This document shows positions 5,821 through 52,264 of a stretch of 64,000 nt of DNA, one piece after another (the stretch's first letter is position 1; each line of letters opens with the position of its first letter). The translations under genes were made by a program, and so were the position numbers. The notes beneath the pieces were generated by a model, which searched no databases, had not been told where the DNA came from, and saw nothing but the letters and a program-made list of their open reading frames with translations. Origin of the DNA: Candidatus Aenigmatarchaeota archaeon. Lineage in GTDB: Archaea; Aenigmatarchaeota; Aenigmatarchaeia; CG10238-14; SCSR01. The DNA lies in the NCBI GenBank assembly GCA_038999725.1, contig JAWBWS010000002.1, positions 94,850 through 158,849 of the forward strand, read 5' to 3'.

Positions 5821-5921
5821 GGGAGAGTGGTCTAGCTTGGTCTAAGACTCCAGCTTCACTCGCTGGAATGGGGACTTGGCCAATTTGCTGGCAATCCCGG
5901 GTTCAAATCCCGGCTCTCCCA
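5821..5921 (+). tRNA. tRNA-Pro(GGG) with two introns (5856-5868 at 32/33; 5874-5885 at 37/38)
   Basis: Acceptor GGGAGAG/CTCTCCC, T arm CCGGG-TTCAAAT-CCCGG, anticodon stem CCAGC/GCTGG; removing both introns gives loop TT-GGG-GT; central helices CCAG/CTGG and TTGG/CCAA. Confidence 0.85.
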
Positions 5922-5990: not shown

Positions 5991-6077
5991 GGGGTTGTAG
6001 TATAGCTTGGTCTAGTACTCCGGCTTTGGGTCTTTGAAAAAAAGCCGGAAGCCTGGGTTCAAATCCCAGCAACCCCA
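5991..6077 (+). tRNA. tRNA-Pro(TGG) with 12-nt intron at 37/38 (6031-6042)
   Basis: Acceptor GGGGTTG/CAACCCC; anticodon stem CCGGC/GCCGG; loop TT-TGG-G|TCTTTGAAAAAA|A. Confidence 0.92.
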
Positions 6078-12541: not shown

Positions 12542-13258
12542 ATGAAGTTTTTTGACTTGCATGTTCACAGTGCTTTCAGTGGCGGTGAGTCGAGTTTGGA
12601 AGAATTGGCAAGAACTGCTAAGCTTTTGGGCTACAGTGGGATTTGTTTTGTATTTTATTATCAAGATGAAACTCAAAAAGATATTTTGGTCGCCGAAATT
12701 GAAAGGATAAAAAAAGAGGTTGGAATTGATATCTACTTGGGGTTCGAGGCAAGAGATGTGAAAGAGTTGAAATATTTGGCCAAGAAAAGGAGAAGCTTTG
12801 ACCTGCTACTGGCAAGGGGAGGAGAAATGGAAATGAATAGAGTTGCATGTGAAACCCCTGAAGTTGATATTTTGACTCACCCGGAATATCAGAGGAATGA
12901 TTCTGGTTTAGATCATATTAGTGTAAGATTTGCGGCAAAAAATGATGTTGCTATAGAAATAAACTTTAGGGAAATCTTACTTTCAAGCAGAGTGAGTAGA
13001 GCAAAAATTTTGGCAAATATAGCAAAGAATGTACAGCTTGCTAAAAAATACAAAGCTAAGATTATAATTTGCTCAGGAGCTGTGAGCCATTGGGAATTGA
13101 AAGATCCTTTTTGTTTAGCCTCTTTTGCAACCTTGTTGGGATTAGAATTAAAAGAGGGGAAAAGAGCCATATCTGAAACACCTAAAGAAATTATTGAAAA
13201 GATTAAAGAGAGGAAAGATGAAAATTGGATCATGCCTGGGGTAAGGAGGGTAGAGTAA
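12542..13258 (+). CDS. rnp3: RNase P protein component 3 (Rpp30)
   Basis: PHP-like DLHVH; VDILTHP; AAKNDVAIEINF; superoperon position. Confidence 0.9.
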   Translation: MKFFDLHVHSAFSGGESSLEELARTAKLLGYSGICFVFYYQDETQKDILVAEIERIKKEVGIDIYLGFEARDVKELKYLAKKRRSFDLLLARGGEMEMNRVACETPEVDILTHPEYQRNDSGLDHISVRFAAKNDVAIEINFREILLSSRVSRAKILANIAKNVQLAKKYKAKIIICSGAVSHWELKDPFCLASFATLLGLELKEGKRAISETPKEIIEKIKERKDENWIMPGVRRVE

Positions 13259-13259
13259 G

Positions 13260-13574
13260 ATGGGTTGTGTAATTTTTTTAACATGTCCAAAAGAAAGAAT
13301 TGCAGAAAAAGTTGCTAAGGATTTGCTTAAGAAGAAGTTGATAGCTTGCGCGAGCGTAATCCCAAAAATTAAAAGCTTTTATTGGTGGGAGGGAAAGATT
13401 GAAAGAAACTCGGAAGTTTTGGTCATGATGAAAACAGAAGAAAAACTTTTCCCTTTGATAGAGAAGGAAATTTTGAAAATTCATCCTTACAAAATTCCGG
13501 AAATTATTTGCTTTAGAATTGAAAAAGGGTTCGAAAAATATTTGAAATGGATAAAAGAAGTGGTGAGAAAATGA
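13260..13574 (+). CDS. cutA: Divalent-cation tolerance protein CutA
   Basis: LIACAS; SFYWWEGKIE; HPYKIPEI. Confidence 0.93.
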   Translation: MGCVIFLTCPKERIAEKVAKDLLKKKLIACASVIPKIKSFYWWEGKIERNSEVLVMMKTEEKLFPLIEKEILKIHPYKIPEIICFRIEKGFEKYLKWIKEVVRK

Positions 13575-13906
13575 GGAAACCGAAAACTTTGCTTCCTAGC
13601 TTAAGAGAAAGAGAAAGATATTTGAAATTTAAAGTCATTTCCGAGGGACCTATAAGCTATGTTGACTTAGAGAATTCAATTTGGAATTCTTTTTTAGATT
13701 TTTATGGAGAGCTTGGTGTTTCTAAATTCTCCCTCTGGATAATCAAAAATTTATGGGACGAAAGAGAGCAAACCGGTGTGATAAAATGTAATAATAAATC
13801 TGTAGAAGAAATTCTTGCTGGCCTAGGCTTAATTTCAAGGCTTGGTGATTTGAGGATTATCTTTAAAATTTTAAAGATTTCTGGAACAATCAAAGGATTA
13901 AAATGA
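13571..13906 (+). CDS. rnp2: RNase P protein component 2 (Pop5)
   Basis: LPSLRERERYLKF; SGTIK. Confidence 0.92.
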   Translation: MRKPKTLLPSLRERERYLKFKVISEGPISYVDLENSIWNSFLDFYGELGVSKFSLWIIKNLWDEREQTGVIKCNNKSVEEILAGLGLISRLGDLRIIFKILKISGTIKGLK

Positions 13907-13927
13907 TTTTTAATCTAGGGGTGATAG

Positions 13928-13940
13928 AAAAAGTTTTATA
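13928..13940 (+). promoter_or_regulatory. Putative BRE/TATA promoter of the psmA-SBDS-exosome operon
   Basis: AAAAAGTTTTATA upstream of the psmA SD GAGGTG. Confidence 0.45.
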
Positions 13941-13996
13941 GAGATTAAAAAGAATATAAATTTCTAGGATAAAGAATTAAGTATGAGGTGAAAAAA

Positions 13997-14729
13997 TTGC
14001 CTGAGATATTACCTGAATACATGGGCTATGACAGGACAAATGAGTAGAGTTTAAAACTCGCTCAGTCAATTTGCTGTCTTCAGCCCGGATGGAAGATTGT
14101 TTCAAGTAGAATACGCAAGAGAAGCTGTAAAAAAAGGAACCACCTGTCTTGGTATAGTTTTTAAGAATGGTATCTTATTTGCCACGGTCAAACCAAAAAC
14201 TCCTCTAATGGTTCCAGAATCCATAGAGAAGATCTTCCAAATAGATGATCATGCCGCTGCCGTTGCTGCTGGTCTATTGGCAGATGCAAGGGTGCTTGTG
14301 AATCAAGCAAGGGTGAGAGCTCAAATCCATAAGATAACCTATGAGGAGGCTATGGACATTTGGGGTCTTGCACGAACTGTTGCTGATAGAATGCAAATTT
14401 CAACGCTTTATGCAGGTTTGAGACCTTATGGTGTCTCTTTCTTGATTGGAGGAATTGATCCAACAGGAGTCCACTTGATAGAGGTAGACCCCTCTGGAAT
14501 GTTATATGAATGGTATGCTTATGCGATTGGAAGAGGCTCTGTACTTGCTAACAAGATTCTGAGGCAAAGGTGGAAACCAAATTTAAGTGAAGAAGATGCC
14601 CTAAAAATTGCCTTGGAGATTCTATCAAAAGTAGAAAAAGAGGGAGAAGCTGATATAGCCATGATAAAACTTGAGGAAAAGAAGTTCAAAAGGCTTTCGG
14701 AAGAGGAAATCAAAAAAATAAAATTTTAG
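13997..14729 (+). CDS. psmA: Proteasome alpha subunit, interrupted by a 31-nt intron: join(13997..14039,14071..14729)
   Basis: SD GAGGTG then TTG; exon 1 MPEILPEYMGYDRT hits TAG unless 14040-14070 is removed, which yields [29 protein letters not shown]. Confidence 0.93.
14040..14070 (+). other. Putative BHB-type mRNA intron (31 nt) in psmA
   Basis: ATGAGTAGAGTTTAAAACTCGCTCAGTCAAT; internal stem TGAGT/GCTCA plus GAGTT/AACTC; central helix GGAC/GTCA; 3-nt bulges AA|A and AT|T give exactly the frame-restoring junction. Confidence 0.85.
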
Positions 14730-14755
14730 TTGTTGATATTTATTAGGGTGTCTAT

Positions 14756-15466
14756 ATTACTGTAGGAGTAGATAAGGCTGTAATAGCTAGATTACAACGT
14801 TTTGGGCAAAGATTTGAAATACTTGTAGATCCTGATAAGGCTTTAGAAGTAAAGAAAGGGATGAAAGTAGGTATGGATGATTTGTTAGCATATCCTGCCG
14901 TGTACAGAGATTCAAGAAAAAGTGAAGTTGCTTCTGACCAAGAGCTTCAGAAAGTTTTTGGTACCACAGATGTAATGAAAATAGCTGAAAGGATTATAAA
15001 AGAGGGTGAGCTACAACTTACAACCGAGCAAAAAAGAAGGATGATAGAACAGAAGAAAATCCAGATAGCAAACATAATTTCAAGAAAGGGTGTAAATCCA
15101 CAAACGAACACTCCTCACCCACCTCAAAGGATAATCAAAGCTATGGAAGAAACAGGAATTAACATAGATCCTTTTCTCGATGCCGAGCTCCAAGTGGATA
15201 AAGTTTTAAAAAGTATAAAAGCGATATTGCCTATAAAGTTCCAGAAAGTTGTGTTGCAGATAAAAATACCTCCACAATTTTCTGGAAGCTCTTATAACAT
15301 ACTTAAGAGTGTGGGGAATGTTATTAGTGAAGAATGGAAGGGAGATGGTAGTTTAATGGTAAATGTAGAAATATTGGCGGGAGTTCAGGAAGAGCTTTTC
15401 CAGAAGCTATCTTCCTTAACCCATGGTAATTTTGAGTCAAAGATTTTGAAGAGGGAAGATATATGA
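14756..15466 (+). CDS. Ribosome maturation protein SBDS/SDO1 (probable ATT start)
   Basis: Conserved VDKAVIARL...RFEILVDPD lies upstream of the ORF-track start; NPQTNTPHPPQRI. Confidence 0.9.
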   Translation: MTVGVDKAVIARLQRFGQRFEILVDPDKALEVKKGMKVGMDDLLAYPAVYRDSRKSEVASDQELQKVFGTTDVMKIAERIIKEGELQLTTEQKRRMIEQKKIQIANIISRKGVNPQTNTPHPPQRIIKAMEETGINIDPFLDAELQVDKVLKSIKAILPIKFQKVVLQIKIPPQFSGSSYNILKSVGNVISEEWKGDGSLMVNVEILAGVQEELFQKLSSLTHGNFESKILKREDI

Positions 15467-16122
15467 GTGAAAAAAGAGAAATAATTTTGCCAGGTGAATT
15501 CATTTGTGAGAAAGCTGGAAGAAAAATTGGACATGGTGTTTATCTTGAAGGTGAAAAAGTTTTTTCTAAAATTCTTGGGATTCCAAATGTTGGTGAAAAT
15601 GAGGTTTTTGTTATACCATTGGCCGGACCCTACATTCCAAAAGTTGGAGATAGAGTAATAGGAAAAGTTTTGAGTGTAGAAATTTCTGGATGGATTGTTG
15701 ACATAAATTCACCTTATGTTGCTTTTTTACCTTTAGGTGAGGCTGTGGGAGAATTTGTTGACATCTCAAAAACAGATATAAGCAGATATTATGATGTTGA
15801 TGATGTCATATTTTGCATCGTTTCAAAAGTTACAAAAGATAAAACAATTCAAGTCTCGATGAAGAATATAGGAAGCAGGAAGCTTTATGGTGGAGTTTTA
15901 ATCAAGATAAACCCAAATAAAGTGCCAAGGATAATAGGCAGGGGTGGAAGCATGATAAATATAATAAAGAAGAAAACTCAGTGTGAGATTTACATCGGAA
16001 GAAATGGCTACATTTGGATAAGAGGAGAAAATAAAAGCAAAGCAATAGAAGCCATCTTCACCATAGAGAGGGAGTCTCACATAATAGGCCTAACTGAAAA
16101 AATTGAAAAAATGTTGGGTTGA
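15463..16122 (+). CDS. rrp4: Exosome RNA-binding protein Rrp4
   Basis: YIPKVGDRVIG S1 domain; KVPRIIGRGGSMI KH domain; GRNGYIWI. Confidence 0.95.
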   Translation: MSEKREIILPGEFICEKAGRKIGHGVYLEGEKVFSKILGIPNVGENEVFVIPLAGPYIPKVGDRVIGKVLSVEISGWIVDINSPYVAFLPLGEAVGEFVDISKTDISRYYDVDDVIFCIVSKVTKDKTIQVSMKNIGSRKLYGGVLIKINPNKVPRIIGRGGSMINIIKKKTQCEIYIGRNGYIWIRGENKSKAIEAIFTIERESHIIGLTEKIEKMLG

Positions 16123-29563: not shown

Positions 29564-29673
29564 TGCCCTCGGCGGGATTCGAACCCGCGACCTTCGCCTT
29601 TCTTTCATCTTTCAATCAAACCTTCTAGCATTGCTAGAAGGGCGCTGCTCTGTCCAAACTGAGCTACGAGGGC
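29564..29673 (-). tRNA. tRNA-Arg(TCT) with 35-nt intron at 37/38 (29600-29634)
   Basis: GCCCTCG/CGAGGGC acceptor; GGA D-loop; GCGCC-CT-TCT-A|intron|A-GGCGA; GCGGG-TTCGAAT-CCCGC. Confidence 0.9.
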
Positions 29674-51017: not shown

Positions 51018-52124
51018 CTACACTATCTTTCCGTTCTTCATCAAAAGCTTGCCATCGACATAAACTTCTCCATGCCTCATGTCCTTGAAGAAATCCCAAT
51101 GAATTGTAGAGTCATTTTTCCCGCCAAAATGTTTGTTATGACCTAATGCGAAATGGATTGTGCCTCTAATCTTTTCATCAACTATTGTCATTCCTCCAGT
51201 AGATTTTGCTCTCGGGTTCGTGCCGATTGCAAATTCCCCTATCTTGTCCTTATCACCAGAAGCATGTTTAAAAACATCTTCAAAATTCTCTTTCCCCTTC
51301 TCAATCTCGTAATCTACAACTCTTCCCTTTTCAAACTTAAACCAAACACCCTCAACTTGTTTCCCATAGTGCCACATGCAAGGTAAATCAAAATAAATTT
51401 CTCCATTAACAGAGTTTTCAACTGGTGGACAAAAAACTTCACCATCAGGTAGATTCACATAACCAATCTCTCCTTTTTTTGTTACAAGTCCACAAGCGTT
51501 TATGAATTTTCTTCCCTTAACAGAAAATTCTAAATCTGTTCTTTCTCCAATTACCCTGATGTTATTGGCATTTTTAAGTTTTTGAATTATTTTCTTGTTA
51601 TATTCATAAATTTTCTCATAGTCAGCTTTCATAGCATCCCAGAAGATTTTTTCCAATTTTTTAAAAGGTATTTCAAGTGCTTCCGCTATTTCTTCTGTTG
51701 GGAAGCCTATCAAAGCAGCTTTCATCTCCTTCTTTTTTTGCCTTCTTTCTTCTATCTCTTTTATTGGCTTTACAGTTTTTCTCCTTATCTCGATTTTATA
51801 TTGAGGAAGCTTCCTTGCAATAAAGGGGTTTGTATCATCTATCACAATTTTCGCATCAACAAGCCTAGAAAGAGCATCTGCAAGCTTTGGCCATTGTTTT
51901 AAATATTTGATTTTGATTACCTTGTAGATTTTAAAGTTCAACTCATCACTTCCATAAGTTATTGTTGGTTGTGCTCCAACTTTTGCCGCTTCTAGAGCTA
52001 AAGCTTCTGCAAATTTTAAGGATTTGGGACCGCAAGAAATTAAGGTTACTTCTTTTTCTTTTACAGCTAAGTTTATGTTTATCACACTTTTTGCAATCTT
52101 TTGCATTTCTTTTTCCGAAAGCAT
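51018..52124 (-). CDS. M29-family aminopeptidase
   Basis: NLPDGEVF; GEFAIGTN; DEKIRGTIHFALG; STIHWD; start moved to ATG 52124 to avoid overlap with the tRNA. Confidence 0.93.
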   Translation of the reverse strand: MLSEKEMQKIAKSVININLAVKEKEVTLISCGPKSLKFAEALALEAAKVGAQPTITYGSDELNFKIYKVIKIKYLKQWPKLADALSRLVDAKIVIDDTNPFIARKLPQYKIEIRRKTVKPIKEIEERRQKKKEMKAALIGFPTEEIAEALEIPFKKLEKIFWDAMKADYEKIYEYNKKIIQKLKNANNIRVIGERTDLEFSVKGRKFINACGLVTKKGEIGYVNLPDGEVFCPPVENSVNGEIYFDLPCMWHYGKQVEGVWFKFEKGRVVDYEIEKGKENFEDVFKHASGDKDKIGEFAIGTNPRAKSTGGMTIVDEKIRGTIHFALGHNKHFGGKNDSTIHWDFFKDMRHGEVYVDGKLLMKNGKIV

Positions 52125-52154: not shown

Positions 52155-52264
52155 GCCCTCGTAGCTCAACTTGGATAGAGCAGCGGCTTAAGATTATCTG
52201 CCGAACCTAAGCCGTTAAGATTTTACTCTCGGCAAGGTTGGGGGTTCAAATCCCCTCGAGGGCA
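52155..52264 (+). tRNA. tRNA-Arg(CCT) with two non-canonical introns (52190-52205 at 33/34; 52217-52235 at 44/45)
   Basis: GCCCTCG/CGAGGGC acceptor; perfect central helices CGGC/GCCG and GCCG/CGGC; spliced arm GCGGC-TT-CCT-AA-GCCGT. Confidence 0.9.

Follow-up and report, generated by a model that had tools for sequence, protein, structure and literature searches.

The window (the whole 64-kb stretch of DNA that was analysed) carries on its forward strand the proteasome alpha-subunit gene psmA, which extends from position 13997 to position 14729 and whose conserved N-terminal signature is split in two by a 31-nt insert. A Shine-Dalgarno-like motif, GAGGTG (13985–13990), was read from the sequence 6 nt 5′ of a TTG codon at 13997, and in relatives GGTGA-type motifs are found at equal spacing from the codon equivalent to this TTG. 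The first exon (13997–14039) comprises 14 codons, beginning with the TTG, and the first base of an Ile codon; the second (14071–14729) supplies the two remaining bases of that Ile codon and runs on through all further codons to the stop. When the frame of exon 1 is read on past the ACA codon at 14036–14038 it continues as AAT GAG TAG, with the stop at 14045–14047. The downstream PsmA frame, which runs from 14071/14073 to the stop at 14729, differs from that of exon 1, and a Pfam search of 14073–14726 gave matches to positions 7–23 of Proteasome_A_N and to positions 1–179 of Proteasome. Frame reading and Pfam thus confirmed the original prediction, according to which the PsmA N-terminus lies in two frames separated by 31 nt that contain an in-frame TAG.

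The same prediction had placed the start of psmA at the ATG at 14021. This part had to be revised, since relatives encode the same N-terminal extension 5′ of this internal ATG, a comparison from which the TTG at 13997 is most likely the start codon. An unbroken reading frame encodes the exon 1 peptide in half of the examined relatives (25 of 50), and the third-position differences between relatives suggest that exon 1 is coding.

Two further observations concern the 5′ end of the gene. Several relatives (for example those at loci L006, L008 and L013) have ATT or ATA at the position of the TTG of this genome, and upstream of the conserved peptide their frame contains neither ATG nor GTG nor TTG, which suggests that their psmA genes use rare start codons or another start. 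In run X4 there is a loose end before 14019, where a contig belonging to another organism shows similarity to psmA that begins at the ATG; in that contig a perfect hairpin ending in TCAGAA precedes the ATG and looks like a further insert located just before it.

The junction was searched for among deletions of 12–60 nt restoring the peptide that relatives encode without interruption. Exactly one single-deletion solution was obtained, the removal of 31 nt at 14040–14070 (forward strand), which restores the frame and the conserved Thr-Ile-Ala. The joining of ACA-A with TT-GCT that had been proposed was confirmed by this unique deletion, and the segment 14040–14070 is treated below as a candidate BHB micro-intron.

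Predicted fold, authenticity and genomic context of the psmA insert

A BHB motif is defined as a 4-bp helix lying between two 3-nt bulges, at the exon–intron boundaries (PMC5829648). At the psmA insert the 5′ strand of the central helix, GGAC (14034–14037), lies in exon 1, and its partner, GTCA (14065–14068), lies at the 3′ end of the intron, three of the four pairs being formed and one position being a G.A mismatch. The 5′ bulge is AAA (14038–14040) and the 3′ bulge ATT (14069–14071), both 3 nt long. The inner stem-loop of the intron (14041–14064; TGAGT/GCTCA and GAGTT/AACTC, with the loop TAA and one bulged A), recognized from the fold and from covariation, starts directly after the 5′ bulge with five contiguous pairs and extends further, and the outer helix (14032–14033/14072–14073) consists of two contiguous pairs followed by a mismatch and then three more pairs. 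EndA cuts a BHB substrate after the second base of each bulge, and the cuts predicted by this rule, 14039/14040 and 14070/14071, are those of the peptide-restoring junction. Bulges with a central helix, flanking helices and a peptide-restoring cut were thus all found in the psmA insert, and the hairpin, the GGAC/GTCA helix with one mismatch and the two 3-nt bulges had been correctly described in the original prediction. A 71-nt stretch around the insert folds at −24.4 kcal/mol (z = −3.25), and none of 200 shuffled sequences folded as well; its minimum-energy fold has a slipped outer helix, in which GACAG pairs with CTGTC, instead of the BHB register.

The structure by itself proves nothing, as the bare motif turns up about as often as its mirror image. 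With thresholds of at least three central-helix pairs and at least five inner-helix pairs, the bare BHB motif was encountered 181,893 times genome-wide versus 181,085 times in the mirror-image control, a chance rate of about 0.0016 per tested position pair (1,459,538 positions × 77 lengths). What gives the motif significance is that it coincides with the only junction that restores the frame, both in this genome and in all relatives with an insert. As tools of discovery, a motif-only genome scan was rejected for its equal frequency in the mirror image, and an ORF-merging filter was rejected as well (23,885 real versus 23,738 control matches).

Contigs of the runs X1, X3 and X4, obtained in two hot-spring studies, bridge 13781–14598 with no indel, and no intron-less form of psmA was detected in these contigs over that interval. 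A look for RNA runs containing the sequence (window 13000–16000) gave none. The presence of the insert in three runs of two studies answers the concern, raised together with the original prediction, that the 31 nt might be an assembly artefact. The genome (G000) measures 730 kb in nine contigs and is 93% complete. It contains one alpha-subunit (psmA) and one beta-subunit (psmB) proteasome gene; the intact second copy of psmA that might have made splicing unnecessary was looked for and not found in this 93% complete genome, in which psmA is single-copy. Both enzymes expected to act on such an intron are encoded. One EndA gene was detected (match at G000:C1:86815–87093), encoding 188 aa (ORF at L003:1474–2040, minus strand) with both Pfam domains, PF02778 and PF01974, and the only RtcB gene, at G000:C2:9735–11039, is full length and stop-free.

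psmA inserts across the order

The psmA gene was found in 113 of the 117 genomes of the order. The 5′ ends of 50 of these 113 genes were read, the sample being made up of 30 loci and of 20 genes picked for truncated or stop-containing matches; among the 63 genes outside the sample most matches begin at query residue 1–5. A few genomes with internal stops (G058, G059, G061, G106 and G109) were left out as well. No insert is present in 25 of the 50 genes, and the other 25 carry 42 inserts, a count that is conditional on the BHB model because the junction search demanded the conserved peptide. The inserts are 18–37 nt long, mostly 29–35 nt, with no more than three per gene; up to three occur in about 60 nt, and some sites are 1–2 nt apart. 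Eight insert sites were distinguished within about 20 codons, all in the codons of the conserved N-terminal signature. Named by the residue whose codon precedes or contains them, they are after E (two inserts), E + 1 nt (two), after EY (12), T + 1 nt, which is the site occupied in this genome (nine), T + 2 nt (four), A + 2 nt (two), V + 1 nt (nine) and Q + 2 nt (two).

A peptide-restoring junction with BHB geometry was found for all 42 inserts, and in all 42 the peptide is restored by cuts placed behind the second base of each bulge. The four central-helix pairs are formed in 37, 42, 42 and 40 of the 42 inserts, and the first five pairs of the inner helix in 42, 41, 41, 39 and 38; when the 3′ partner was slid by 1–3 nt, the pairs fell to 2–33 of 42. 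The outer helix is weak (paired in 24, 32 and 15 of 42), the first base of the 3′ bulge is A in 39 of the 42 inserts, and in one insert (L025) the inner helix is interrupted after 1 bp. Alternative junctions giving the same peptide have 0–2 central-helix pairs, with a single exception that has three pairs and no inner helix.

Within the genus of the window, psmA is insert-free in G005 and G006, and in this genome (G000) and in G001, G002, G004 and G007 it carries inserts at five different sites. Since congeners differ both in the presence and in the site of psmA inserts, the turnover of these elements is fast. In a control set of 80 archaeal loci the psmA signature was found in one frame in 74; the six exceptions were four insert-bearing relatives of the order and two sequence variants without an insert.

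The alignment of psmA from relatives had been put forward as a check of the prediction, and eight relatives with an insert at the same psmA site as this genome were available for it (site-B alignment, A1, n = 9); their helices covary. Paired cells make up 84.0% of this alignment, versus 28.0–40.7% with the partner slid out of register, and in eight pairs both members have changed. The covariation score was 0.443, versus 0.066–0.165 for the slid registers, and was reached by none of 500 shuffles. Seven of the nine pairs of the inner stem-loop (helix 3) change on both sides. The central-helix pairs are formed in 5, 9, 9 and 9 of the nine genomes, the G.A mismatch being present in four of the nine inserts and the other five having four pairs of four; relatives have GTCC where this genome has GTCA. 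One central-helix pair varies as GC, AU or CG, a variation that is coupled to synonymous changes of an Arg codon.

Inserts in other genes

To look for further inserts, blastn, tblastn and a junction-peptide census were applied to this genome and to about 552 kb of the congener G007; because the census detects only inserts that differ between the two genomes, the insert totals are lower bounds. Two genes of this genome, both located outside the window, gave inserts that are absent from G007. In the uppS-like gene (locus L165, outside the window) a 32-nt insert at G000:C1:95126–95157, minus strand, shows a perfect BHB junction, with a GTGC/GCAC central helix of four pairs in four and both bulges AAA, and the Pfam family Prenyltransf is matched at positions 1–25 and 24–219 by the two pieces of the gene. 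In the EF-2 gene, frame-by-frame reading revealed two compensating frame breaks, though tblastn had given one long HSP. The first corresponds to a 20-nt insert at G000:C1:225002–225021, minus strand, with a canonical BHB in the codons of a GTPase motif, and the second to a 13-nt insert at about G000:C1:225158–225170, minus strand, which has the 4-bp helix and both bulges and no inner helix.

The only rtcB gene of G007 contains two 19-nt inserts, and Pfam RtcB positions 1–26, 27–48 and 48–426 fall on its three pieces. Across the order, the rtcB matches of many genomes break up at these same places near the N-terminus. In the nine genomes whose rtcB was read (G004, G007, G011, G014, G022, G029, G055, G075 and G097; loci L045 and L168–L175), 13 inserts of 13–31 nt were found at no fewer than five sites (at least five) near the N-terminus, with BHB-type junctions; seven of seven residues around the junction are identical, and all but one insert, of 13 nt, pass the helix thresholds. 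In other genomes, open frames of 840–1472 aa are observed at the places of the rtcB inserts and perhaps represent inteins.

Two more inserts of G007 are absent from this genome, a 35-nt one at G007:C1:16690–16724 in what we take, from its peptide motifs, to be an RNase HII-like gene (rnhB), and a 31-nt one at G007:C3:79651–79681 in a presumed RpoP-like gene (rpoP), named on the same basis. Both have BHB geometry, and for both spliced peptides ten of ten junction residues match the uninterrupted genes of this genome. The expectation that the lineage might carry further micro-introns was thus borne out by uppS and EF-2 in this genome and by rtcB, rnhB and rpoP in relatives.

The comparison also gave results of other kinds. 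Within the window, the remaining indels that distinguish G000 from G007 (C2:120580, 122266 and 123155) lack a BHB junction, and insert candidates were discarded when they lay in low-complexity or antisense frames. Two inserts of G007 relative to this genome, of 37 and 32 nt (G007:C5:50228–50264 and 51590–51621), have BHB geometry and lie in no convincing protein frame; the region is probably an RNA gene. In this genome cbf5 looks uninterrupted, both TruB_N matches being contained in one open frame of 323 aa.

The window contains four Rfam tRNA matches of 87–110 nt, at 5821–5921, 5991–6077 and 52155–52264 on the forward strand and at 29564–29673 on the reverse strand. Run on the window with default settings, ARAGORN called no tRNA; with introns allowed it gave many doubtful calls. 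Since the matches are 87–110 nt long and are missed by default ARAGORN, the four tRNA genes very probably hold intervening sequences. Re-calling with ARAGORN after BHB splicing of these tRNAs was rejected as too permissive to be informative.

Interpretation and relation to known systems

The unique junction, the covariation, the single copy of psmA, the presence of EndA and RtcB and the agreement of contigs support in silico the reading originally proposed, and the segment 14040–14070 is very probably a BHB intron in the pre-mRNA of the only psmA gene of this genome. In the mechanism envisaged, the psmA transcript would fold so that GGAC of the exon pairs with the last four structured bases of the intron, GTCA, this helix being flanked by the two 3-nt bulges, the inner hairpin and a short outer helix. 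As the geometry and the gene content indicate, EndA would cleave after the second base of each bulge and RtcB would join the exons, producing the Ile codon A|TT and the frame for a PsmA of 233 residues. On an unspliced message translation would stop after 16 codons. Comparison between genomes places the psmA insert in a lineage-wide set of predicted BHB inserts of 13–37 nt in core protein genes of the order.

The removal of the inserts from RNA by another pair of nuclease and ligase, or by a small self-cleaving structure, is considered very unlikely. It could account for the 13-nt inserts without an inner helix (EF-2 and one in rtcB), which under the preferred reading would need a tolerant EndA. 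The geometry is nevertheless that of a canonical EndA substrate, in which bulges of 3 nt flank a helix of 4 bp and each is cut behind its second base, and genes for both EndA and RtcB are present; no other Rfam family was found around the psmA insert at gathering scores.

Translational bypassing, in which the ribosome would hop over the 31 nt with no RNA splicing, is known from phage T4 gene 60 and from the short mitochondrial "byp" elements, and requires matching take-off and landing codons. Like bypass elements, the psmA inserts are short, form hairpins and have a stop soon after the 5′ boundary. The take-off codon would here be ACA, yet there is no ACN at the 3′ boundary, and the codon preceding GCT in the downstream frame is TTT and not that of the conserved Ile. 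Moreover, 28 of the 42 psmA junctions lie inside a codon (phase 1 or 2), and bypassing has no need for a 4-bp helix flanked by two 3-nt bulges, an arrangement that is nonetheless conserved, with covariation, in all 42 inserts. This explanation is therefore regarded as extremely improbable.

There is hardly any likelihood that the gene is broken, by decay or by assembly error, or that translation begins at an internal codon such as the TTG at 14097 and yields a short PsmA, the upstream piece being a relic: small symbiont-like genomes do lose genes and the longest psmA open frame under table 11 does start at 14097 (210 aa), yet this is the only alpha-subunit gene, the insert is identical in the contigs of three runs from two studies, the conserved peptide of exon 1 is exact in 25 of 25 insert-bearing genomes, which is unexpected for a relic, every insert has a precise BHB junction, and initiation at 14097 would leave PsmA without any of the Proteasome_A_N signature.

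Returning to the BHB intron, splicing of archaeal mRNA at BHB motifs has been confirmed for no gene except cbf5, in Crenarchaeota (Desulfurococcales and Sulfolobales), according to PMC2738675, which also mentions unconfirmed BHB predictions in a rudivirus and in Sulfolobus; papers of 2018 and 2025 on the splicing enzyme cite only the cbf5 work. The naming of cbf5 as the documented archaeal mRNA intron in the original prediction agrees with the literature searched (PMC2738675). That literature, which included PMC3082918, PMC12397907, PMC5829648, PMC8784108, PMC3655853, PMC2738675 and the preprint 10.64898/2026.10.13.758758, yielded no mention of a BHB intron in psmA or in another protein gene of a DPANN archaeon; the search covered open-access main texts, and earlier mentions may exist.

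The inserts resemble the cbf5 intron in being short BHB inserts of a protein gene that break the frame and are gained and lost among relatives, and in being prone to misannotation or to reading as a frameshift (PMC2738675). They differ from it in that the gene is psmA and the lineage of DPANN type, the intron here not being in cbf5, in their density, as many as three introns being held by one gene and eight sites lying within about 20 codons, and in that several genes are hit, including the ligase gene itself. The BHB introns of archaeal tRNA and rRNA, which may be multiple and at non-canonical positions, have the same motif, and the same enzymes are presumed to act on them (PMC5829648). By contrast, the substrate of the introns described here would be an mRNA, whose reading frame is kept only if the cuts are exact and whose codons provide the 5′ strand of the central helix.

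In eukaryotes, HAC1/XBP1 splicing removes a small frame-changing intron, which is cut at stem-loops by Ire1, as a regulated stress switch. The likeness to the case described here lies in the cutting at stem-loops by a non-spliceosomal endonuclease and in the joining by RtcB, whose role is mentioned in PMC8718801; the differences are that the nuclease is Ire1 and not EndA and that a regulated stress switch is involved there. As for location, the inserts of the psmA type are found in the parts of core genes that code for the most conserved motifs, a feature shared with inteins. Inteins occupy conserved motifs of housekeeping proteins and are removed at the protein level and in frame, unlike the BHB inserts.

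A wider reading, for which we see some support though less than an even chance, is that the order, made up of Aenigmatarchaeota-like archaea, has proliferating and probably mobile BHB micro-introns of 13–37 nt, repeatedly gained and lost in the codons of the most conserved motifs of core genes (psmA, rtcB, EF-2, uppS, rnhB and rpoP), an intein-like niche. The kind of element, a BHB intron in archaeal pre-mRNA, is known; what is new are the genes, the DPANN-type lineage, the density, the clusters of sites 1–2 nt apart and the involvement of rtcB.

A reduced genome of symbiont size appears in this case to need the tRNA-splicing machinery for psmA, for EF-2 and for uppS, the gene of a lipid-carrier enzyme of the cell envelope, and mRNA splicing may be routine in this lineage. 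If RNA data confirm the reading, there would be one archaeal order, if not more, in which mRNA introns are common, and gene callers would systematically truncate or discard such genes, with a bias in the completeness and in the metabolic inference of DPANN genomes. The order would also offer a natural system for the study of intron gain, loss and one-base "sliding", because sites 1–2 nt apart hold different introns that pair with coding sequence. Under the wider reading, cells would need EndA and RtcB to express the proteasome, a translation factor and even the ligase that completes the splicing. The case of rtcB would amount to a self-referential loop, in which the cell must inherit the ligase protein in order to make the ligase, and would raise the question of how a ligase is maintained whose own message needs ligation.
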